A stretch of 64,000 bases of DNA from Curvularia clavata (lineage: Eukaryota), in the NCBI GenBank assembly GCA_023920165.1, contig CP089277.1:434001-498000 (forward strand), read 5' to 3'. Position 1 is the first letter of the stretch. Each line of letters begins with the position of its first letter. Shown here one piece after another: positions 16,501-57,784 of the stretch. Both the position numbers and the translations under genes were made by a program. Below the pieces are notes generated by a model. That model did no database searches, was not told where the DNA came from, and was given only the letters and a program-made list of their open reading frames with translations.

Positions 16501-19469
16501 AATTGTACTGCCTGTGTGTATAGAGCGCAACAACAACTCTTCAACGCTTGAATCTACAAGTACCGTTAAAAAAACAAACACCAAAACCGCTCGCGTGCGC
16601 TAAACGAACTTCCCCAACGTAAGCCTGCGGCTATGCTAAACGCCCCTGCCCATATTACTGCCGTGCAACCGAATTCGGGTCTACTGCGGCTATGCTCTGC
16701 CCCCATTCTCAGCAGCACCCGCCCGCCCCCATCTTACCTACTCTTGCCTTATTTGTATTCCTAATTCTGCGAGGCGTCTCACCCAATCGTTCAATTACTA
16801 CGGAGCAGGTTGACCTATATTTACCGAGTCATTGGCCGGCAGCACCCGACGTCAAAGCGAGACAATCACATTTGTCCAAGCCTTGCAGCTTGCATGCTGC
16901 CCCGCTCAGCTCCTCGGCAGGAATATGTTACACAGCATGCGCGCAATACGTAGTTACTGCGGGCGGGCGTGCGTGAGCGGGCGGAGACATTAGCCGTGTT
17001 GGTAAGGTCGAAGATGGAATCACCCCCTCTCTTTCTCTCTTCGTCTTGCTCGCATCAAGGGTAGATGCATACACAGTCATGTTCCCCATGTTCAACATTT
17101 TAGGCAGCACCTATGATCAGAGGGTGTGCAGAGCACAGCAGCTTGGATCCGGTCAAAGACGAATGGAAAAAAAGGTGGCTGCAAGTCACGGAGCTCGGAA
17201 CCAGGGCCGGGCATCTCGCAACGTGCATACAGTAGGAGGGCCAAAGTAGTCCTGTGCCTTGCGTCTGGCGTTCTGCGTGACATAGGAAAAGGGCCGAATA
17301 CCCCGTGTATGGCTACGTGTTACCGCCTGCGTGGCAGCAGAGGCTGAAAACGGATTTGGCTGCACAAGAAGCTTCGAAGCCTTCAGGTCGGAACTGTACT
17401 ACTGACCTTGATCGGTGAAGAGGATGAGGTGATTGCCTACCATAAGCTGAGTATCCCTTTTGATTGCTTCTCGCAGTAGTTTCCAGACTAGACGACCATG
17501 TGGCTGCCTTGCCTTGTGCGGGGGTGCAACCTGATAGAGGGTGTCGTTGTTAAATTGTGAGGCTGCAACATGCTATTCCTATATTAGACGCCAGTCCGCG
17601 GTCCACCAGTACCATTCGTCCATTGCATCATGACCTTGACGATCTGCCAGGCTCAGTTGCGGAGAAGGACATGTGCGACATACCAAGTGTTTTGCAGTAT
17701 GGCAGCCGAGACATGGTAGACCATGCGAACCTGCATGAAACCAGACGCCGAGCAACGTGGTGCCAATTGTGGGGGTTGCATAAAACTGATAACCGATCGC
17801 ATGTCAGCATCGTGGTCCTAGTGAGGACTCCGGGCCTCGCAAATCCGGTTACCTGCATGATGCTAAATGCACGGCGTCGTCGCCTGACAGTTGCAACTAT
17901 CGCGCTCGAGCTTCCCCCCATCTTTGTCAATGCTGGATATCTGGATTTATCGATTTGTAGTGAAAATGCATATGCACAGCCGAACATCTGATCAGTATTA
18001 CTCGGTTACTGAAAGTCGGTATATTGCAAGTTGGAAATAATGTACAGGCCTCGCTAGTAGGCGATGTGTACCGTGACCGCAAATGGATCGAGTATGTGAT
18101 GACATTATACAATCGAAATATAGCGTCTTTGCAGTAGGCAGCTGATGCGATTGTCAGTCTCACTCCAGGCAGCACCAGTGCTGGCGGCTACTGACGACGA
18201 AGACGCAATCACCGCATTAGCCGCCAGTACTGTGGAAGGATACCAAAAAGCACCCTGTGACTTTGCTTTGGTGTGTCAACAGATATCTTCTTTCAGTACT
18301 TGGAGGGCTTGATTGCGGACGAATGAAGACATGCCAATGTAGGCTGAGTACATGCGCCACCGTATGAGTAAAAGAAGTGGTCGTGATGAGTCAAGAAGAT
18401 AAGGACACCGATCATTCTTCTGTCGGTCTTAGCTGCTATGTCGGCTTTAGTAGTTTCAAGTGTTGGGACTGGTTAGCAGAGGCGTGGGCATATCCACATG
18501 TGCATCACCGTCATCTCTTTTGGGTAAGAAGCTTGACCCTCACTGCCACATGGAAAGCGAGAGTGAAAGTCTGTGTGAAGGCTTTAGTAGGCCACGAGCA
18601 AACGAAAGCAACGGCTGACTTACTATCGCTCGCTCGCTCACTGATCTGACTCCTACTCCCACATCCTCAATAAAAGCTGCAGTTCTTCTACAACTCAGCT
18701 GGGGGATCTCCTGAGAGCGATGTGAGAAAGGGAGTGTATACAATCCACTCTCCCACCCCAACTTGGATTGTATCAAGACCAAGGATTGCATATGCCGTTT
18801 AGGATGCAGCTTGATGTCTATGTCCTGCCCCGAAGTCATTGTCGAGGGCGGGATAGTGCAAACAGCCTGTACCATGGACATGAACCCCGCAACCGATAGA
18901 CGACCGACAAGGGAACATTCGGCCAGAACTACCTAGTGTTATGTGGGGTTTACTTCCTGGAACTAATGAGGCTGGAGCCATGGTTATACAGTGGCTGCAA
19001 TGACGTTGCGTGGGGTCTTCGGATGGCGATTAGTCGCTTATAGTGACGGCATCTTTACGAATGGCGGACTGTTATAGTTCACAGGATGAAGTGGCTTGGT
19101 TCTTTACACTGTGTCCGCGGCTTGCGGAGGTCCAAATAAGGTGTTGGTAGTATGAAAGCAACCCATGGGAGAGCGCACGCGCCAAGGACGACATGCTCCG
19201 ACATTCCGACCCCGCTGGACTTGGGTTCAACACAATCTTTAATCCGCCACAACCGTCCACATCTAGGCGCAAACGCACACGCACACGCGCAACCACCAGG
19301 CTTTTTCTCCCTATAGGCAATGGTCTGAGTAGGAGAAAAGCCCATATTCTCAACCGCTCCCGCTCACCAATAAAACCGCCACCAACCGCTGCCTCGAAAC
19401 TTCGCACTCGACCCCACGAATTTCCCACCCAAGTCGGGGTGAGCGAGCGTTCAAGCGCGCACGACGACC

Positions 19470-22400
19470 ATGGAGGGCGCCTTCACACATATGGGCAACC
19501 ACCTGGTGTCCGACTCGGCAGCCACCATCAATGCTGGAGACGTAGACGAGGGCATCCTTGACGGCGACCTTTCTCGCGGCCGGCTCTCACGTAGGCGCCG
19601 CGCCGACGACGACGAAGAGTACGATGACGACGATGCGGAGAGCATGGCCAGCATGCCAGTGGGTGGACGGAACGCCCAGTCAGGCATGCGTGCAGAAGAT
19701 GCAGAAGATGCAGAGGTCGAGCTGCCACCCCATGCATGTATGTAGGAAACCGGCGGGCACAACGCAAGGCCCTGCCAATGGACTGATTGGTTGACTGACT
19801 GGTTGATTTAGGCGCATACTGTGGCATCCACAACGCCGGGAGTGTCGTCAAATGCCTGGCCTGCAGCAAATGGTTCTGTAGCGCCCGTGGCAACTCATCG
19901 TCGTCCCACATTATCAACCATCTTGTCCGCGCCCGCCATAAGGAAGTCCAGCTGCACCCCGCCTCATCGCTCGGCGACACGACGCTCGAATGCTACAACT
20001 GTGGTACCAAGAATGTCTTTTTGCTCGGCTTCATCCCCGCCAAGTCAGATACGGTCGTTGTTCTGCTCTGTCGTCAGCCATGTGCCGCCATGCCCTCACA
20101 GAAAGACATGAACTGGGACACATCGCGCTGGCAGCCCCTCATTGAAGACCGCTCTTTTCTGCCCTGGCTCGTCCCTCCCCCAACCGACCAAGAACAGCTC
20201 CGTGCCCGCCATCTGAGTCCCCAGACTATTGCAAAGCTCGAAGAGCTGTGGAAGGATGATGCGAATGCTACAATCGCCGACCTCGAAAAGGGAGCTGGCC
20301 AAGAAGAGGTTATTGCCAAGGTCTTGCTCCGCTACGACGACGCCTACCAGTACCAGAATGTCTTTGGTCCCCTGGTAAAGATTGAGGCCGACTACGATCG
20401 AAAGCTCAAGGAGTCGCAGTCGCAGGATAACCTCGTTGTGCGCTGGGATATGGCTTTGAACAACAAGCACACAGCCAGCTTTATCCTACCCAAGCTCGAG
20501 CTAGGCGACGTCAAGCTCGCTGTTGGTGACGAGATGCGACTGCGCTATACTGGAGAGCTCCGCCCGCATTGGGAAGGTGTCGGATATGTCATCAAGATTC
20601 CCAACAACCAGTCTGACGAGGTCACTATCGAATTGCGCACCAAGGGCGACCACAAGTCAGTCCCTACTGAGTGTACTCACAACTTCAGTGCCGACTACGT
20701 CTGGAAAGCCACTTCCTTTGACCGCATGCAACACGCCATGAAGACGTTTGCAATCGATGAGATGAGTGTTTCCGGCTACATTTTCCACCGTCTCCTCGGT
20801 CACGAAGTTGCGGCAGCCCCTATGAAGGTTACCATTCCCCGCAAGTTCAGTGTACCAGGTCTTCCGGAGCTCAACAGCAGTCAGAACAACGCTGTCAAGA
20901 GTGTTCTCCAGAAGCCGCTCAGCTTGATTCAAGGTCCTCCGGGTACCGGAAAGACCGTTACGTCTGCCACTATCATTTATCATCTCTGCAAGATCAGCGG
21001 CAGTCAAGTCTTGGTTTGCGCACCCTCCAACGTCGCTGTGGACCAGCTGTGCGAACGCATTCATCTAACTGGCCTCAAAACGGTTCGTGTAACAGCAAAG
21101 TCGAGGGAAGACGTCGAGTCTCCTGTTGGCTTTTTGTCTCTCCACGAGCAAGTCCGCATGAATGACACCAACGTCGAGCTGAACAAGCTGAATCAGCTGA
21201 AGAACGACGTGGGCGAACTCTCAAGCCAAGACGAAAAGAAGTTCAAGCAGCTCACTCGTGCAGCCGAGCGCGAAATCCTCAACGCAGCCGACGTCATCTG
21301 CTGTACTTGCGTTGGTGCTGGTGATCCTCGACTAGCCAAGATGAAGTTCCGCACTGTGCTTATCGATGAATCGACCCAGTCTGCAGAGCCGGAGTGCATG
21401 ATCCCCTTGGTTCTTGGATGCAAGCAGGTCGTACTGGTCGGTGACCATCAGCAACTTGGACCCGTCATTATGAACAAGAAGGCTGCCACAGCCGGTCTGA
21501 ACCAATCTCTGTTCGAGCGTCTCGTCATCCTTGGCTGCTCTCCCATCCGACTTCAGGTTCAGTACCGCATGCACCCTTGTCTGTCCGAGTTCCCGTCCAA
21601 CATGTTTTATGAAGGCTCTCTCCAGAATGGTGTCACCATGCAAGAGCGCATCCGTCGCGATGTCGACTTTCCTTGGCCCGTTGTTGACAGCCCTATGATG
21701 TTCTGGTCCAACCTTGGTGCTGAAGAAATCTCAGCTTCTGGAACTTCCTACCTCAACCGTACCGAAGCCCAGAATGTCGAAAAGATCGTAACACGCTTCT
21801 TCAAGGCAGGTGTACAGCCCAGCGATATTGGTATCATCACCCCATACGAAGGTCAGCGCAGCTATGTCGTCAGCTCCATGCAGGCAACCGGTAGCTTCAA
21901 GAAGGAGAACTACAAGGAGGTTGAGGTTGCCTCTGTCGACGCTTTCCAAGGTCGTGAGAAAGACTTCATTATCTTGTCTTGCGTACGTTCCAACGACCAC
22001 CAGGGCATTGGTTTCTTGAGCGATCCCCGTCGTCTCAACGTCGCCCTTACGCGAGCCAAGTATGGTCTCGTCATTCTTGGAAATCCCAAGGTCCTCTCCA
22101 AACACCCATTGTGGCACTACCTCCTCCTTCATTTCAAGGAACGCAACTGCCTCGTCGAGGGCCCTTTGACCAACCTTCAAGTGTCGCTTCTCCAATTCAG
22201 CCGCCCCAAACAGACCTACCGTGGACCTCAACGCTACCAGATGGCTTACCAGCACGCCAACGCTATGACTGCTGGTGGTCGTCAGCCGGGCTTCAATGGC
22301 AACAAGCCTCGACAAGAGTATAACGATAACGGCTCCATTGTTGGCTACATTCCAGATGACGTTTCTTCTGTTCACTCCTCTGCCCTCGGTGGTGTTGGTG

Positions 22401-22792
22401 TCCCTTCCAACTACCCTCCTATGTTCTCCAATTTCCAGGAGTCTTGGCCCCTACCTGGCCGTCCCAACGGCAAGGGTAAGAACGGCGCGCCCCAGAGCGT
22501 TGCTGGTGAGTCCATCGCAGCTAGCGAGCTCACAGATACCCGCAGTGATGCGCCTGGTGGTATTAGTCTTTCTGGTTTGAGTTTGAACGACTACAACAAG
22601 CCCACCTCACTCAGCCAGTCAGATCGCCTCAACCGCTTCGTTGAATCTACTCGCCAGGGCCCGAACGTCGGCACCGGCTTTGGCGCTGGTCGTGGGCTGC
22701 GCGGTGCACTTGGTGGTTTCGAAGATGATGATGCTCGCAGTGTATCCACTGCTTTTGCCAGTCAGATTGGCACCGGCAACGGATATGACTGA
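19470..22792 (+). CDS. UPF1: NMD RNA helicase Upf1/Nam7; intron 19738-19811
   Basis: Splicing restores the CH zinc domain (PHACAYCGIH...). SF1 motifs [49 protein letters not shown]. Confidence 0.98.
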
Positions 22793-23887: not shown

Positions 23888-24715
23888 TTACATAACGGTA
23901 CAGCACTTGAGCATCTTGAGCAACTTGGGCAGCCCCTTCTTGACCATCTCCTCGATCTCGTCATTCTGGTTCTGCTGTTGCTGCTGCTGTCCATGATGCT
24001 GTTGACCATGGTGTTGCTGTTGACCGCCATGCTGCTGTCCAGGGTATCCGCCGCCGCCATGACTAGGCGCCACATGGGGAGGCGGCGGCATTTCATCGAC
24101 GCTACCGCCCTGGAGGTTAACAAAGATTCTACCCTCGTTCTCCTCGGTGCGGTATTGCAGGCCTAGCTCGCGGCATACCTGCTCGACGCGCGGCTTGATC
24201 TTCTGCACGTGGTTCCGGCTGTGATTGCCCTTGCCGACAATGACGTGCAAGTGGCTTTGGCCTTGCTGGCGGGCGACTTTGATGCGTTCTTCGAGGACGT
24301 CCTCGGCTTCTTCGACGAAGAGACCGTGAAGGTCAATTGTATCGCTGGCGACGCGCCCTTCGGAATTGTTGGCACGGAAAATAAAGTCGCGGGCTTGTCG
24401 GTTGTATTGCTCCATCTTCTCCGCATGCTTCTTTCCTTCTTGCGACAGCTCGTGGGCGGCAGCGCCGTCGCCGGCCTCGTAGGCTTGGTGCGCGCGGTCA
24501 AAACATGAAGAGCGCTTTGCGGCTTCTTGACGGGCTAGGTCGCGAAGGCGGTCATACTCAGCTTCCGTGTCGGCAGAGGCGTGATTGAGAGCTACAGGTC
24601 CATGTTAGTTGTGCTGTTGCGACTCGGCGTGGCTGGTGTTGAGGAGATGGGGGGTGGAGGCTTGTTAGAGGCACGTACAGCGCGAGCCCAAAGAGGACAT
24701 TTCCATGGCTGCCAT
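23888..24715 (-). CDS. DUF1771 + Smr domain protein (Ypl199c-like putative endonuclease); intron 24592-24678
   Basis: Smr motifs IDLHGL and VIVGKGNHS, N-terminal helical region EYDRLRDLAR, Q/H/G-rich linker, C-terminus CCTVM. Confidence 0.9.
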
Positions 24716-30100: not shown

Positions 30101-31249
30101 CATTACAGCCCAAGAAGGATTTCCCAAAGGATGCCACAGGATTCTCTACCCAATGGATTTACCGCCCCGGTAAAGGACAACCACAAGGCCACTTTTCTTC
30201 AGTTTTACCAGGACCACATATTCCCAAGGACAATCTTCCCAGGACACGAGGCACGTAGCACACTGCCCTTGCGGTGTTTGTAGACACGACAATCACGAGG
30301 TGCCTCGATGCCCCCGATTCAGAGCTAAAATGCAGAGCTCTCGAAAAGGCGGTGAACATGCGAGAGTGGATCCTCGGTAATAATGATGCCCAACACAAAC
30401 TATCGATCAAAATTCGACAATACCGGCATGCAGCCCCGCATCGCCGTAGGGATCACGTAGGCACCCAACAATGTCGTTCTGTATTATGTTCAACTAGGCT
30501 TCACGACGAGCGACTGGTAATGTGCACGCCATATCCCAAGGGACGCCAAGCCATGGACCAGAAACTCCCGGATCAGCCAATGGAAATCGTGACCCTGGTA
30601 TATGCTCGCCCACATGCCGGATTATTCTCTGGAAGTTGACCCATACCGGCCACGGCTATGGGTGTCGAGAAACTTTGGACGGACATGAAGTACGTACATG
30701 GGCTGAAGTCTGCCTATCCTCACCAACCCGTTGATCGCAACTAACTTGGGTGTTGATTAAGGAACACATGCTGTTCTGCGTCGCCTTCTATGCTGGATTG
30801 ATTGCCCTGGTCTTCTGCGCACTGCTTCTACTGGACCTGGATATCTGTTCCTCGCCTTGCACATGGTCACTTACTCGTTGAACTCATCGGTCTCGGACGT
30901 GGGCAATAATATGGATTCCTTTCCGGTGATGCTGACCCTGCTGGCTCCTTGAGGTGCGTGCGCCTCACATAATACCCGTATACCAGCCAATGCTAACGTG
31001 TCGTTTTGTACAGACTTCCCTCTGGCTACTGTACTAACATGGCTATTTCCTTTGTATTAAACTATTGTCTTGTCATTGAGGTTTGCTGTGCAAATGTGCT
31101 TGGTACTGACTTTGGTGTTTAGCGACTCTTTCTTCGATTCACCACCGGAGCCCGCATTCTACATCTCAAACATTACTGAGTGGAGAAAGGAGATCCCCAC
31201 GCCTGTTGTTTCCGCGCCGGACTTTCCTTTCTCTTCAGATCTTCAGGAC

Positions 31250-49136: not shown

Positions 49137-49897
49137 TTACTTCTTCGATGGGTTAGGGCTGATAGTGTTGTCAGGGAACTTGCGGAAAATGTCGGCAATG
49201 TGGTCGATGGGAGCAGCAAGCATGCCCAATGGGCCCTCAAACAGAGGGTTCTCGCCAGCGCTGGGATGGCTCCTTGAAGGCACAAGCATCTTTGTCCTGC
49301 CAAAGTTCTTGGCCAAGCTCTCTGAAGTACCCTTATCTGCCTTGGCAAGCGCACTCTCGAGGGCTGGCAGGTCATCACTCTCTTCCTCCTTGATGTGTTG
49401 ACCGAGTATTCCCCATAGTTCTTTGAGCTTGGGGACGTAGGCGGAGTCGGTGGCCTTCATGTTCTGGAATTCCTTGAGCAACTCCTTGACCTATTGCTTG
49501 TTAGCATGATTCAACAGATTATAGAGGATAAAATAGGGCTCACTGACCTGGTGATGTTGTTGGCGGTCCTTCTCAGCGTGCTCCTTGCCCTCCTTCCCGC
49601 CAATGTACTTTTCCATAGCAGGATAGATAAGCAGCTCTTCGGCTACAGAGTGTCGGGCAAGCTCCCAAGTAAACTGGTTGCCGAAACGAGTCTTGTGGTC
49701 GACATCGTCCGAGTTGATAACCTCGTTGTAGTACGACTCGAGTTCGCGGTGGTCCTTGATAATGACGTCTGAAATCGTCGACATGGCTGCGACACGGGCA
49801 CGAAATGAGGCAAAGTTGTTGTTTACTGTGACACGAGTAGCCTGGGGCCTAGGAGCAGCTCTGGCAAATGATGATACAAGAGTTCGAGAGAAGGACA
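49137..49897 (-). CDS. Hemerythrin/HHE cation-binding domain protein; intron 49491-49547
   Basis: DHRELE, WELARHSVAEELLIYPAME, DRQQHHQVKE, HIKEEESDDLP and PSRSHPSAGENP motifs. Confidence 0.9.
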
Positions 49898-50958
49898 TAT
49901 CGAAAGAAGGAGGACAAGAGTTCAAGGCAAGAAGCAGGCTTTTAATATGCTGTTGGCGAGCAATGGAGGATTCGAGTCTTGCAGGCTCCTTCCATTGGCG
50001 CTTTTATTCTGTGAGAAGGTGTTGTATATTTTGCGCGTCATTGTATCGCAACTCGCCCAGCTGCACAGTAACACGACTACTTTCATTGGCAGGGAGGCAA
50101 ACACCGTGGTCGTGCACAGGCGATCCTTACTAGACGTAGTGGAGACGATGGCGCGAACCCGCTTACCGTCTCAAATCGGAACCGCGCCTATTGGACAGCA
50201 TCACTTTCACGTCACTACACCAACCCCAGAACATATCACTTCTACCTTTGATACACGGCGCGACGGCCGTCAGAATGCCACGCAGCTCGACCTTGGGGCC
50301 AAGCTGCTGCGACCAGCGAATCAGATTCTAAGTTTTGATTTGTTTCACCCTAAAACTGATTGGAGCATTCGACTCCGTACAAAGTTATCAAACCGCTGTA
50401 TTACAGCTCCGCGGCGCATCCACTTGAACACCCACGTCACCAAATTCTCACAGCTACTGCGTTGTCAGCTCCTCGTAGCCGGCTATGTTGCGTCGAGATT
50501 CTGTGCGTCATGGCATCGTCGTTGATATTCTGCATACAGATTGATGCAGCAACCGCCTTGACCAATATTGAATTTCTGTTACGCTCATATCGAGAAGGAT
50601 TGATCAGCTATTCTCAACCGTGCAGTTAGCTAGCACGTGAAAGTAACCTTTGTTTCTTACAGCAGACAGTCGTGCTTCAGAAACTCAAGAAGAAGAAAAA
50701 TATCAACGTACTCGTGCCATCTAGGCGTGAGAGCAGTTCAATGTCGAACACGACTTCTGTTGAACAAAGGAATTCTAAAGTCCATGTAGAGAAGAGAAAT
50801 CCCCCCCAAAAAAGCAGACACTAAAGTTAGAGTGATAACCTAACCAACCAAACAAGGGAGAAGAGAAAATCCAATCAAAGAACTAAGGAAAACAAGAAAC
50901 TCTTGACCGCACGACTACCCAACAACAACTCACCAACCTCTCTCCAAAACCAGGGATA

Positions 50959-53900
50959 TCACATCCAGAACATGGTATCATCTAGTTCCTTAGCCCAAGG
51001 ACCAGGGCCGTCCTTACGAACCTTATGCCACTCCTGAACTGCGCGATTCAACACTTCCTTCGCCAGCAAACCCTGTACAAACCTTTCATGCTCTCTCTCC
51101 ACCGCAACCTCCTCTGTCCCCTTCCTAGGTGTACTCTTCCCAGGCTGCGGAGCCGCTGGCATCAAGCTCGCCTTCCGGTTAGCTAAACGCTTCTGATTCC
51201 CCTGCCTGATGGTGTTCGAAGCGGCCAGATACCAATTGTACTCGGCACTGCCTTTGTCCGGACTGAACCAGTTTCTCATGTACGCCCGACCACGATCGCA
51301 AAGTCGATCGGCGTAGTATGCTGGAGGTGGATACGAAACTCCAACGGTTGCACGCGCGTACGTGTAGCAAAGCTTGTATGTCAGTTCCTGGAGCTCCGTG
51401 TCTTTGAAGCCGATTTCATTCGCGATGATCATGTAGTGCGTTGGTATGGCTGTACCTTTGAGCCCGTGGTGTGACTGAAGGTAGAAGTCGGCGTAATGGG
51501 GTGATGTGATTGCGCGGTCGACAAGAGTGCCGGGATTGCAATTACCGTTTTTGGCGGCGACAGAGGTGGCGGGGAAGAAGCGCGTTGAGTGCCGTTTGAC
51601 GGCGACGACGACAGTGATTTGGACGTTGGGACAGCCGGCGGCTTCGCATGCGGATCGAATTTGCGGGAGCTCTTCGTCGCGGACTTGTGGGAATTGGCCA
51701 GTGCTGACGCCGTCACGGTAATACAGGATTTTCTTGGGAAGGACTCGAGTCGCGCGGAAGTAGGCCTGGATTCGCTCAGAGACCATGGCTTCGAGGTCGT
51801 CGATGATCTGGAAATCTGAGTTAGCCGGCACCTGGAAATCTGGATGCTCACTTGAACGTTACCTCTTTCTTGCATGTCCGCTGGAGTCTCATAGAGCCGC
51901 GAAACTTGATTGCGCTGGAGTCAATGGAGCCAACAACGGCAGCAATGGATGGACATCCTGTCAGTGAGCCACTGCCCGGGTGAGTGACATCTGCTCCGAG
52001 AACCAAAGTTCCTTGTAAAGCAGCCTGGAGTTGTGACTTGGGATTCGTTCCAAACTGAACTTTGTGATTGGTGCCACCAAATTTGAGGTTCACCTTCATC
52101 ATGATATTGGCCATGTACTGGGTAATCTGGGTGTTGCACCTCCCTTTAAAGTTTGGAGCTTGAGTCATGCAGAGGGACTGCATAGCCTCGTAGCGGTCCA
52201 CGACGTCTTTAAAAGCAGAGTACGCCGGAATGCTCTTGTTCTTCAGCAACAGAATGACAAAATCGGCTTGGGGAAACTTCTTCTTCATGTTCTGCAGTGG
52301 GGTTCGGATTTTCGCCTTGATGGCATCGTACGGTATCCCTCGGACACCCTGGATGTACCCAAATGCCAGGCGACTTGCGCCGCTGCAGATGTTGTATGAG
52401 CCAAGTAGAGTGTTGAAAGCCGTCGTGTAAATGTTGACAGTGTTTTCGCGGTCGCTCATGTCATCCTCCACAAGCAAAAGGTAATTGATCCGCTTTTTGG
52501 ATGCAGCGCCGGGCGATTCGGCAAAATTGCGGAGCTTCCCAAGATTCCATTGCGCTTTATCGTTCGGTCTCGCGGTGGGAGTCTCTTTTCCGTACGAGAT
52601 CACGATGGGTTGCATTTGTGCGGACGGTATCTTGAGCATCATAGGCTTGATGAGGAGCTGGGGACAGCCAGGCTAAAGCAAGTTATTTGTTAGTTCGCCC
52701 TTAAGCTGATTATGGAATAACACTCACAAGTGCCTGTTCCTTCTGGTTGGGGTCGAGCCCAAGACTCTGCATTCCCTCAATCTCGATCAAGCGTCGGGTC
52801 TGAGCGGGAACGTGCGCTGCCATTGACAACATATCGTCAATGAGCCGCTCCGGAAGAAGTTTCTTGTAGAGTTGGTACGGTAAGATGCGTAAATACTCCC
52901 GAGGATAGTAGACCGGATCCTTCTCGTTGCCAACATTGATGGCCTCGAGGTTGGGGTTGAAGTCTTTCCCAAACACTTCTCTCAAATGTTGCTCAACACG
53001 CTTGCGTTTCTGGGGATCAGCTGCATTTGAGAACGTCATGCTCGGGTCATTGAACTTCCTGCCAAATCCAAAGATGGTTTTGACGCGGTTCGAGGTCTTA
53101 TTGAGACGATCAATCTGATCTTGATTGGCCGGGACCGGCTTGCGGTCATACATCACGTACACGCGCAGAGTCTTGAGAAGCCGATGCTGTTCATCCGGAC
53201 TGAAGGTTCTGTCGGCCAGGAACTCGCCGACTGTGATATCGTTAAAGAATGCGCTAGTCGCAGGGTTGACGTTGAGAAGGATCTTCTGCATCCCTGGCTT
53301 GATCGTGAAATAGTAGCCTCGGATTGCGCACAGTGATTTGAGTGATCCGTTGCCACCCAATATCATGGCGCCACATTTCACGAAGAACTTGTTACTGGAT
53401 TGCTGAAAGACCTTGGAAGTCAGGCTGTTGGCGATAGCAAGGTTGAGTGCGCTGATAATGGGGCTGACGTTGAAGTCCGGATCGCTTCCGTTGCGGCTCG
53501 CATCCATGTAAGCATGCAGTCCATCCAGATCGAGTTCCCGATGGAACTTGATGAAGAGTTGAACTCTCTCACTTCCATCTGCAAAAGCCTCGGGCTGCCA
53601 TACGGCGCCAGCGTAAGTGCCATCATCTCCAGGAATGATGGGCTGGTACCCGAGTGACTCGTGGAGGTTCTTCCATGCGATAATGGTCTTGATGCGATCA
53701 GTGGCGTAGTACTGCCGATTGTTCCTGAGCATATCCCATGTATCTTCAGCAGTCTTGAAGATATAATGGGCTTTGCGCTTGCTCTTGCCAGCAGGGATCT
53801 TGAGAATCTCGTACACGAAGAAGTGGGTGTTGGGTTTGAAACTGACTTCGAAGTGATTGGTAAAGACCTCTGACGACGTCGAAGCAAAGTCTTTCCGCAG

Positions 53901-54500
53901 GGGAAATTGGGCTTCCTTCGCTTTGCTGAGGACGAGCTTGGGTTGGAATGCGACGCCTGAACCATCAGACTTTCCTTGCACCTCGGCGAATGGTACGGCA
54001 TGTGTGTCCACCGGATCTGCCTGAGTGACCGAGAGAACCTTCTTGAGACCAACGACCGAGCGATCAACTGACTGAAGAATGCGATTCAACGTGGCATCCT
54101 CATCTGCGGCTGCGGCTGTGTCTTTGGCTGGATCCGTCACCACCGCTTTGGCTGGAGCCTCGACTGCCCCTTTTGCTGAGCTCTCCGCCACATCCTTGAC
54201 CTGATCTTCCAAGTTGACCTTTGCCAAAGCTTCCGCAGTCGCATCCGCGGATGCTTTCGCCGCTGGTTCCTGGTATCGCGGCTTCTTTGCCTTGCGGAAC
54301 CTGACAATAGCCTGACGAGCAGCATTGGCTTTGCCTACACCGTAGATTTTTGCGAGTGGTGAGTCCATGCCAGCAATAACGTTGAGTTTCGGACAATCTC
54401 CATCATACGCATCGTGACCGCTGATGCCACAGATGACGCAGGGGTCATCATTCATGTGGCGAAGGAGAGATGCCTCGGTCATACGCTCGAAGTCGCTCAT
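50959..54500 (-). CDS. Argonaute (N, L1, PAZ, MID, PIWI), divergent paralog; introns 52673-52727 and 51808-51862
   Basis: TNHFEV, RGYYFTIKPG...LLNVN, YYPREYLRI, NIMMKVNLKFGGTNH, LVLGADVTHP, YYRDGVS.GQF, KRHSTRFFP, DFYLQSH.GLKGT, GVSYPPPAYYADRLC; ends TMFWM. Confidence 0.95.
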
Positions 54501-55152
54501 GGTAAGGTTCGGGGTTGCCAACTGGGGGTGGATTTGGACGAATAGAGAAGAGAGGGAAATAATTCAGATCGACAATGACTTATTCAGATAGTATTGACGA
54601 ATTAGTGGATGGGCTTCGTGATGAAAAATGGAAACCTGTAGATGCCTACCTAAATATTATCTCGACGAGACGTGTCGCATCCTTGGTTTGCGGTATTACC
54701 GCCTGGGTGGAAACTGACAAAGGATGCCTGCATACACAAACAAGGAGTGCAAACAACTTGCAACCGCTGTAATGTATGCCTGACGCAGCCAACCATGGCA
54801 CACAAACCCGAAAAGAGTGGCGAAGACTATTCGGCAACCGCCGCAAACATTTATTGATCTTTGAAGGTTGAGATCCTCTTTGGTTTGACTTTGTCCGAAG
54901 CTGTCGGGATACTTAGTTTGCGATGCCAAACGGGAATCGGTCCAAATATGCGAGCAACGAGGGAACGGTTGCCACTCTGTGTTGCTAAAGAAAAAACTGC
55001 ATGCTTTTGTCGAGTAGTTTGTTGGTTTTTGTGGATGACAACAAAGTGTATGAGATATCTCGAACAATGGTATTGATTGGCTGGACCAACTAGCCCGGAG
55101 CGTCTATGAAAACTGCTCCTGATGGACGAAAAATGAAGTGAATTATGCCTGT

Positions 55153-57784
55153 CTACCTCTTTTTGTGCTTCTTCGCTGCCCTCTTCTCGCCCCGAACATC
55201 CTTCTTCAGCCTGGCATCGACCATCTTGTATTTACCCTTGGTACCCTTTGGTCTGTTCTTGATGCCCTTGTTACCTCCTCTGGCCACAACGACACTGACC
55301 TTTTGTTTGGGCTTCTTCTTGGCCGCTCTTGACATCAATCGTGCGATACTTTGAGCCTTTTCCTTCTCTGTCATGCCCTCCTCATCTGCCAAAAGTGCTG
55401 ACTTCTTCTTGAGCTTTTCCAAGCGTTGCGCGGCCTTGTATTTCTTGCGAGCCTGAGCTTCTCGGACCTTCTTGATAGGCCGAGCGTTCAGAGCGCGAAG
55501 CTTCTCTTTGATGGCAGCAGCTGCAGCCGCGGACGTAGGCCGCTGTATCTTGGAATGTTTGTTTTCATCATCGAGGAACCAATCAGGAAGACCATCAACG
55601 TCTCGATGCGAGTAACGGTTGAATGACTCGTCCAGGAGGTCGTGCTTGGTCTTTTTCCCGGTAGCCATTTGGTGAGCGAGTGTCATAGCTTCTGCCGTAA
55701 TGATATCGATGTCTGGTTTACCATTCTTCATAGGCATAGAGTCTTGCTCCCATTGTGTTTCGTCGCGCGCGACTTCTTCAATCTTGTCATCATCATCAGA
55801 CGAATCGTCATCGAACGCTGCCGGTGGAGCAGCGGCCTTGTTGCTTGTTCGAATAGACAACTCCTTCTTGGATGCGGGAGCGGGTGTAGCTGACTCCTCC
55901 TTTGGCTCAGCATCCTCTTCAACATCAATGCCGCTGTCGTCATCCTCCTCAAGGTCGTCAAGTCCGTCGATGCCCTTGAATATGTCTTGATCGAAGAAGC
56001 GCGCTGCGCGCTTCGTGAGCCCTTGCTTAGATGAGCTTTCGCGGTCCAGATCAGTGATTAGTTCTTGCGGTCCTTCCTCTTCATCACTGCTCCAGTCACT
56101 GTCGGCGTCTTGTACGAGCTCTTCGTCATCGCTTTGCTCCTTGTCCTCATCAGAGAAACCATTCCATTCTCCATCATCGTCTTGTTTCCTCGCGCGTTTT
56201 GCCCTGTACTTGGCATCCCGGGAGGATCTCTGCTCAACGTATTCACCGTACATCGCGTCGAGTTCTTGTTCGAGTCGGTCTTCTTCGTCGTCGGTCTCGG
56301 GCTCTTCCTCTTCCTCTTCCTTCTTCTCCTTTTCAACAAGCTGTGCCATCTTTCCTCTAGCAATCTTATTGAGAGCGCCAGCCTTATCGATACTCTTGAG
56401 ACCAAACATGGCGTCTTCGCCAGTCGGGCCAACCTGTTCCAGACCAATGTCGAATGGTGTAGCCATGTTCATTTGTAGTCTGGTAATCTCCTTCTGCCTG
56501 CGTTCATTCTCGATACGACGCTGTTTCTTCTTTGCCTTGTTGTCCTTCTCTTTCAAGCGTTCCAGTTCTTGCTGGATCTGCATCTCTTCGTCCATGGATT
56601 CAACTTCTGCAACCTCTTCACCTTCTTGCGCTTCCTTGGCCTTGTCCTCGTCGGCTTTGTCCTTCTTTGACGAGAAACCAAAAATCTCGCGCACTTTCAG
56701 TCGCCAGCGGAGAAGGCGCTTGAAGTCGGCTCGTCCCAGGACTTTGAGATCAGCGCAACAGTCTCTTATCTCCTTGGTTGTTTCTGGGAGCTTGTCGATG
56801 GTGGCTATGGCGATATCACCGTTGGGCTTTTGATCAAAGCTCAGCTTGCTCAAGCCACCGAGCATGGCAATGGGATCGGTGGTTTGGATGAACTCAGACA
56901 CGGGAGCCTCCTTGAACTGTGTCCAGTCTCCCTCTTCGTAACCCTCACGCTTCCTCTTCTTTTGTTCAGGCTTGAATACCTTGGCCTCGTTGTTAGGCGT
57001 GGGATCTGCGAGCTCGGCGAAGACACTACGGGCGTCAAGAAACTTGGGATCGAGGTGCTTGGGGGCCTTGTAGCCGCGGCAGACGACGAAAATTTCGGCA
57101 GAGACATTTCGAGAAGATGGAGGCTTTGTTGCCTCGACTTTGGTGAAGAGCTGGTTGAAGACCCAGAGCAGCGAGTTGTAATCCTTGGATCTGAAGACCT
57201 TTGTGACGAAAGTTCCACCTTCGATCAGGAATTCGGTTGCCAACTTCATAGATTGCAGCACAAGCTCAGCCTGGGTGAAGGCATCCTGCACCCACGCAGT
57301 TCCGACATTGGGCGCACCATCGTGAAGTACTGTGTCGCACTTGAGATGTTTAAGATGCTGGCGCAGTGTCGCTCGGCACTTATCCGTTGTGATATCGCTT
57401 TGGAAGGTAATGCATCGCGGGATGGGCTTGATTGGAGCGAGATCTACACCGACGATGAGGGAATTTGCAGGCATAACCTGGAAATGTCAGTATAAAGTCT
57501 GGCGCATGGCTTTTTGCATGAGATGAAAAAAATCGCACCTCGGAAGCGACCTGACACCATGATCCAGGAGCGGCGCAAAGATCAATCAAGACCTTGCTCT
57601 TTTCTAGGAAGTTGTACTTCTTGTTCAACTGAATCAACTTGAAGGCGGCACGCGCGCGGTAGCCCTTCTCTTTGGCAAGCTTGTACCACTTGTCAAGACG
57701 ACCTTTTCCATGCTGGTTGTCGATTAGTCATTGCGTGTCGCATGAGTACAGTCAGTATTTGCGCACCTTCTTTTGGATCGCCAT
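55153..57784 (-). CDS. SPB1: AdoMet-dependent 25S rRNA 2'-O-methyltransferase Spb1; introns 57713-57766 and 57478-57538
   Basis: [61 protein letters not shown]-terminal NARPIKKV...YKMVD. Confidence 0.97.

Follow-up and report, generated by a model that had tools for sequence, protein, structure and literature searches.

A predicted zinc-helix module at the N-terminus of an Argonaute from Curvularia clavata and its Dothideomycete relatives

Eukaryotic Argonautes usually begin in a disordered tail, and a folded, clade-wide zinc domain at that end of the protein is unusual. The 64-kb stretch of the Curvularia clavata genome analysed here (hereafter the window) appears to encode one: on its minus strand, positions 54440-54393 specify CVICGISGHDAYDGDC, a C21-x2-C24-x4-H29-x6-C36 motif at residues 21-36, in the first exon of an Argonaute gene. 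Structure prediction makes this motif the core of a helix-knuckle-helix-helix domain of some 70 residues, apparently an undescribed, folded, class-wide accessory domain borne by an otherwise intact Argonaute. Where the initial annotation had pictured a CCHC zinc-knuckle-like module, we now see the predicted zinc site of a larger helical domain and not a free-standing knuckle of retroviral type. The full-text literature within reach of our search, which takes in few subscription journals and excludes tree figures and domain cartoons, gave us no account of any fungal Argonaute bearing a zinc module, and the mentions of zf-CCHC followed up there were unrelated to it. Dothideomycetes include many crop pathogens, which have several poorly characterised Argonautes. 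Zymoseptoria tritici has four, a diversification that its authors call unexplained in the available text of PMC8303167, and SNOG_10421, the Parastagonospora nodorum orthologue of the window protein, falls outside the four SnAGO genes studied in the accessible portion of PMC10792503.

The gene runs on the minus strand through three coding exons that keep the frame open for 1143 amino acids. Exon 1 (54500-52728) encodes the module, a linker, the N domain, L1 and the PAZ region; exon 2 (52672-51863) encodes L2, MID and the start of PIWI with D819 and E861; exon 3 (51807-50959) completes PIWI with D893 and D1028 and adds a long two-helix C-terminal insertion before the closing PW...TMFWM. Pfam recognises ArgoN at residues 211-355 (PF16486, E 8.1e-8) and ArgoL1 at 387-419 (PF08699, E 3.6e-6), both exceeding the curated cut-offs, as well as Piwi, with PF02171 matching exons 2 and 3 across the MID-PIWI lobe. 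PAZ returned no Pfam match in the window protein and a match in 7 of 43 module-bearing relatives; that a PAZ region is present we infer from the model of the Bipolaris maydis orthologue (P0196), which aligns to human AGO2 (E 3.4e-56, TM 0.80 over the target, 880 columns aligned) and is 75% identical to the window protein over L1-PAZ. Because that model matches human AGO2 the core is taken to be complete, and with its tetrad of D819, E861, D893 and D1028 the gene product is predicted to be an intact slicer-type Argonaute; DEDD recurs in 75 of 90 long rows among the matches listed. The full-length P0196 model is confident (pLDDT 90.1) and ordered in all but residues 75-124, with two long helices (1041-1066 and 1084-1113) inserted ahead of the C-terminal motif. 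No second Argonaute was found in the 64-kb window, and the neighbours identified by eye are presumably housekeeping genes: an SPB1-like rRNA methyltransferase (55153-57780, minus strand), a hemerythrin-like protein (49137-49900, minus strand), a UPF1-like helicase (about 19800-22790, plus strand) and a Smr-domain-like protein (23891-24604, minus strand).

Two public runs from separate studies, X1 and X14, bear out the gene structure: their contigs precisely skip both 55-nt GT-AG introns (minus strand, 52673-52727 and 51808-51862); neither run is on record as RNA, and we read them as such because the joints are spliced. X1 contig 4 is continuous from 54773 to 52728 and is then joined to exon 2, which places the module in the spliced form. 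A few percent of sequence difference from the window marks X1 as a close relative rather than this strain, and it carries a 6-nt insertion at 54233, within the linker. The coverage of runs X14, X15 and X9 lies outside the knuckle and is not evidence on it. The first in-frame ATG past the upstream stop is at 54500, in the context ACCATGA, and P0196 and the P. nodorum protein P0203 are annotated as starting at the equivalent methionine. The initial annotation had noted that translation might begin downstream of the motif; the motif is retained from Met1, Met7 or Met16, being lost only with Met45, and the spliced X1 contig covers the whole module.

The module spans residues 1-72 (54285-54500) and was folded by AlphaFold, as residues 1-85 with an alignment of 43 rows picked for carrying it (A2), at a pLDDT of 88.8 and a pTM of 0.78, with helices at 9-15, 48-53 and 55-70 surrounding the knuckle (54393-54440). 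The predicted fold is thus confident, and larger than first supposed. The P0196 model concurs, with a pLDDT of about 90 over the module, below 50 over residues 75-124, and order restored from 125 to 200. The module very probably takes up zinc and is an independently folding domain. Behind the knuckle, the basic patch and alanine-rich linker remarked on at first sight are both present, the former (residues 55-77, helix 3 and its tail, 54270-54338) with eight K/R and zero D/E and a net charge of +8 against a family median of +2, the latter being 27% Ala with a net charge of -6 over residues 78-150; yet of the long linker then described only about 50 residues (75-124 in the B. maydis orthologue) are predicted to be disordered. 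We place the flexible, acidic linker at about residues 73-135 (54096-54284), from its low pLDDT in the orthologue and its low identity. Module and linker differ sharply in conservation, at 82% versus 51% identity between the window and B. maydis, and linker identity is the lowest or near-lowest of all regions compared. The motif itself stands well beyond chance: when residues 1-194 were shuffled 20000 times, C-x2-C-x2-8-H-x2-8-C turned up in 5 of the shuffles, and with the entire protein shuffled as often it turned up in 41. A similar CxxC-H-C pattern occurs three times in the six-frame translation of the 64-kb window, the knuckle included; the other two strings, on the plus strand at 30270 and the minus strand at 17713, may be chance.

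Searches with the module by itself returned little. No Pfam family matched residues 1-85 at E <= 1, and none of the 25 families listed for the 43 module-bearing members covers the module. Weak likeness to the AIRE PHD finger and to Nanos, from phmmer of residues 1-100 against PDB sequences (E 0.22-0.76), was judged to reflect chance cysteine matches. The best ESM Atlas scores were 0.84 and 0.81, with rows carrying PF00098 at 0.76-0.77, and serve as leads only; a word-indexed search with residues 1-70 of P0001 gave seven candidates and returned P0001 alone.

Among Argonautes the module is widespread. Three full-length matches, from B. maydis (71% identity to the window protein), P. nodorum (47%) and Melanomma (41%), retain the four ligands, with six, five and four residues, respectively, before the last cysteine. 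Conservation of the ligands, proposed at the outset as a check among orthologues, thus extends across a wide Argonaute radiation. A search of 50% clusters found 684 proteins at E <= 0.001, of which the best 150 were used; the working set of 154 sequences comprises 153 matches and the window protein, and 60 of these, in many cases fragments, were set aside because fewer than 80 residues precede the core. Among the matches listed, C-x2-3-C-x2-20-H-x2-7-C/H is present in 53 of the 94 long N-termini (the window protein and P0014 included) and a CxxC variant in seven, and conservation of the motif reaches down to about 30% core identity. Within A2 the ligands are kept in 43, 42, 43 and 41 of the 43 rows, in order, alongside conserved hydrophobic positions at 4, 12, 16, 22, 31, 49, 53, 61, 65 and 68. 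Spacing is looser: across 74 motifs the canonical x4/x4 is commonest (23), followed by x3/x4 (13), the x4/x6 of the window occurs three times, and the interval before the histidine ranges from x2 to x13. Apparent C4 forms (P0130 and P0139) occur among the ligand variants.

Nine relatives (P0031, P0036, P0038, P0041, P0066, P0075, P0077, P0177 and P0178) keep helices 1-3 without any of the four ligands, and hhalign relates this knuckle-less form to the module (probability 59%, E 9e-5, score 23.4 versus at most 12.2 in 50 column shuffles). The knuckle is therefore not the indispensable part of the module, and the zinc looks structural. The knuckle-less forms offer a natural control for function.

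Carriers are named from many genera of Pleosporales, from Botryosphaeriales (Diplodia, with two copies, and Lasiodiplodia), from Coniosporium, and from Mycosphaerellales-type fungi (Pseudocercospora, Zasmidium, Elasticomyces with two copies, Oleoguttula and Meristemomyces); among the matches listed the radiation is almost exclusively Dothideomycete. The Mycosphaerellales-type proteins bear a long-loop form, CxRC...H...C...LWxGF, which profile comparison shows to be homologous to the module (probability 87%, E 3.7e-6, from 17 rows chosen on CxRC). A FastTree phylogeny of core sequences, rooted on Wilcoxina and Tephrocybe, retained 89 of the 90 long rows after one with fewer than 450 core residues was dropped, and two long-branch joins were flagged. 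Among those 89 rows from the matches listed, 44 carry the module, two a canonical knuckle and two the helices only, while 21 have none and another 20 lack the length needed to tell. An 86-row group (support 98) splits into two deep branches, each of which includes carriers; Sclerophora, lacking the module, lies outside it. The tree calls for at least 16 changes of module state, and an ancestral domain repeatedly lost is the simplest reading. One 12-row Pleosporales subclade is without the module, and at least six of its 12 members start Arg/Gly-rich by eye. Among the matches listed, Massariosphaeria and P. nodorum have three paralogues each and Alternaria dauci two; those of P. nodorum differ in state, P0002 having the module, P0177 the helices only and P0164 an Arg/Gly-rich start. 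The rows nearest the window protein are COCC4DRAFT_127590 of B. maydis and the P. nodorum cluster of SNOG_10421. Two members, P0014 (Massariosphaeria) and P0179 (Lophium), replace the helical module with a canonical retroviral-type knuckle set within Arg/Gly tracts; they are not sisters in the tree, and their knuckles are therefore read either as convergence or as a remnant of how the module arose. One of them, P0179, comes with a precomputed PF00098 match, so at least one member of the clade has already been labelled zf-CCHC automatically.

The initial annotation also suggested that the module might define an undescribed silencing or antiviral branch; it is, however, lost repeatedly inside the clade, and the clade itself may be no more than an SMS-2 lineage that has expanded. 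Like the meiotic-silencing Argonaute SMS-2 of Neurospora crassa and its orthologues MoAGO1 and ChAGO2, the window protein has a fungal AGO core with Asp at the fourth catalytic position, and we take its PW...TMFW end and YADRLC motif to resemble SMS-2; it departs from that clade in its long helical insertion near the C-terminus and in the multiple paralogues found within one genome. Neither SMS-2 nor any other Sordariomycete AGO is labelled among the named matches listed, and the zinc module goes unmentioned for SMS-2-clade proteins in the available text of two papers on fungal Argonautes, one of them PMC5946944; the word 'zinc' occurs in neither. A link between a Magnaporthe AGO and retrotransposon Gag was dropped, 'gag' being absent from the text of PMC5946944. 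An SMS-2 origin would not exclude a role in vegetative defence, since MoAGO1, an Sms-2 homologue, is described there as acting in both hairpin- and retrotransposon-induced silencing. Meiotic silencing (MSUD) does operate in B. maydis, where RdRP is the sole component identified according to the accessible part of PMC10512333. The quelling Argonaute QDE-2 of N. crassa (PDB 2yhb) shares the AGO-clade MID-PIWI lobe with its DDD/DEDD residues; the B. maydis orthologue nevertheless scores 189.8 bits to 2yhb versus 206-212 to human AGO1-3 (212.4 to AGO3), a rough comparison, made without a tree and with the human chain the longer. Roughly, then, the orthologue appears no closer to QDE-2 than to the human AGOs, whereas true QDE-2 orthology would be expected to give a far higher score to 2yhb, and this argues against it.

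For the function of the module, the reading we place first, tentatively and short of calling it probable, is that of a tethered, low-specificity RNA-gripping arm. The knuckle would bind one zinc and brace the three helices, the disordered linker of about 50 residues would let the module move relative to the Argonaute core, and RNA would be contacted through Arg/Lys and Trp on knuckle and helices, with no guanine pocket of the retroviral type. Such an arm might raise the avidity of the Argonaute for long target or precursor RNA, such as transposon or viral transcripts, or might alternatively hold it in silencing granules, Arg/Gly-rich tails filling the same role at the same position in sister proteins. 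We put this reading first because canonical knuckle spacing is the commonest in the family, because of its K/R positions, and because Arg/Gly tails or canonical knuckles occupy the same N-terminal slot in relatives (the Arg/Gly-rich subclade, P0014 and P0179). K/R stands in 37-53% of the 43 rows at each of seven module positions, four belonging to helix 3, and position 50 is aromatic in 53%. The intact core, with its DEDD tetrad and AGO2-like model, fits the same picture. RNA-binding modules often occur in tandem, and 4 of 89 rows (among the matches listed) have two copies of this one. The module shares with zf-CCHC PF00098 (NCp7, Lin28, CNBP, Air2) its C-C-H-C ligand order and, in 23 of the 74 motifs, the exact x2/x4/x4 spacing, from which the window protein departs with x6 before its last cysteine; the knuckle probably derives from the canonical C-x2-C-x4-H-x4-C type. 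A QDE-2-group protein, Colletotrichum higginsianum AGO1 (ChAGO1), bears not a zinc module but an RGG box, described as binding nucleic acid and protein in the available text of PMC4890784.

Several observations pull the other way. RNA binding is plausible, but the initial claim of a single-stranded RNA-binding knuckle finds support in part only, from the canonical spacing of the family. In knuckles of the NCp7 and Lin28 type the residue after the first cysteine is aromatic and stacks on guanine, whereas of the 43 modules aligned here a single one has an aromatic residue there. The window knuckle is acidic (net -3), the net charge of the module has a median of just +2 (range -3 to +5 over 43 rows), and the basic patch is not conserved. 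Unlike zf-CCHC, the knuckle is set between conserved helices, and zf-CCHC is absent from the 25 Pfam families listed for the 43 members. Helices 1-3 outlive the knuckle in nine relatives, and 34 of the 94 long N-termini among the matches listed have no motif at all.

Some of these same features suit a protein-protein adaptor, a possible but somewhat doubtful reading in which zinc does no more than hold together a three-helix domain that would offer a binding surface to a partner (RdRP, Dicer, a helicase, a granule scaffold or a viral suppressor) and routes each paralogue to its own pathway. Conservation does fall mostly on hydrophobic positions and ligands, the helices outlast the knuckle, and the net charge is low. 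Between distant members identity is 24-36% over the module and 39-70% over the core regions (N, L1-PAZ and PIWI), a faster divergence such as paralogue-specific binding surfaces would show, and several paralogues coexist within single species. A precedent exists in nematode GTSF-1, a zinc-finger cofactor that binds an RdRP (PMC13650160, in its accessible part). Against the adaptor, its candidate partners are putative, and what sister proteins have in this slot, an Arg/Gly tail or a canonical knuckle, points at least equally well to RNA.

GTSF1 also figures in two readings that we hold to be less probable. Like the module, GTSF1/Asterix is a small zinc finger amid helices that works with a small-RNA effector, as a PIWI cofactor and, in nematodes, with RRF-3; it differs in being a separate protein with usually tandem CHHC fingers, where the window protein has a single CCHC copy fused to the Argonaute, and the likeness is one of analogy only (accessible text of PMC13650160). 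No sequence likeness between the two was found. One unlikely reading is that the module is an undescribed zinc domain acting as a fused Argonaute cofactor, either a fungal GTSF1 counterpart that licenses slicing or a fast-evolving sensor that tethers the enzyme to retrotransposon or mycovirus RNPs; if so, gain, duplication and loss of the module would partition Dothideomycete paralogues into defence pathways beside quelling and MSUD. Improbable, too, is a built-in regulator, in which the module would dock on the PIWI/N lobe of the same protein to activate or inhibit slicing as the fused counterpart of metazoan GTSF1. The flexible linker of about 50 residues could reach the core, and GTSF1 is a zinc-finger PIWI cofactor reported absent from fungi in the available part of PMC13650160; yet the ligand order is CCHC and not the usual CHHC of GTSF1 (the same text records CCHC variants of GTSF-1 in some nematodes), and members without the module retain the same DEDD core. 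A model of the P. nodorum module in complex with zinc and the core of the same protein scored 0.00, with alignments unused and the partner fold uncertain, and is evidence neither for nor against.

An equally improbable account makes the module a near-neutral appendage, a small ancestral domain in decay with little effect on silencing. It would explain the 16 or more state changes on the tree, the variable spacing and the ligand losses (P0009 and P0098 end in histidine, P0116 is without the second cysteine), but sits badly with a module so much better conserved than the linker in B. maydis, with a single module difference among 13 P. nodorum records, and with ligands kept on both deep branches of the class. 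That the Cys and His residues cluster by chance, or that the stretch lies upstream of the true start codon, is suggested by a few divergent annotations (P0001 begins at the module's second methionine, and the N-terminus of P0214 differs) and is refuted in practice by the shuffles, the conservation, the confident fold and the unbroken spliced contig.

The module is a marker for sorting Dothideomycete Argonaute paralogues and, at 70 residues and four ligands, a handle for clean mutagenesis. The role of the extra fungal Argonautes is thereby directly testable, with a bearing on mycovirus control and RNA-spray fungicides.

Elsewhere in the gene, the two-helix insertion between the end of PIWI and PW...TMFWM (about 51270-51016, minus strand) is modelled in B. 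maydis at high confidence and is much shorter in the Mycosphaerellales-type members compared. The 5' leader (54501-54773, minus strand, an extent set by X1 contig 4, whose end is not a transcript start) has two upstream ORFs that could dampen translation or act as a gate on it: the ATG at 54733 opens one of 27 aa, out of frame, and the ATG at 54680 one of 7 aa, which is in frame but ends at a stop of its own. Across intron 2 (51862-51808), which falls directly after the catalytic E861, X1 yields an unspliced contig at depth 15.4 beside the spliced one at 7.8, reflecting either DNA carried in the library or retention of the intron, which would remove half of PIWI.
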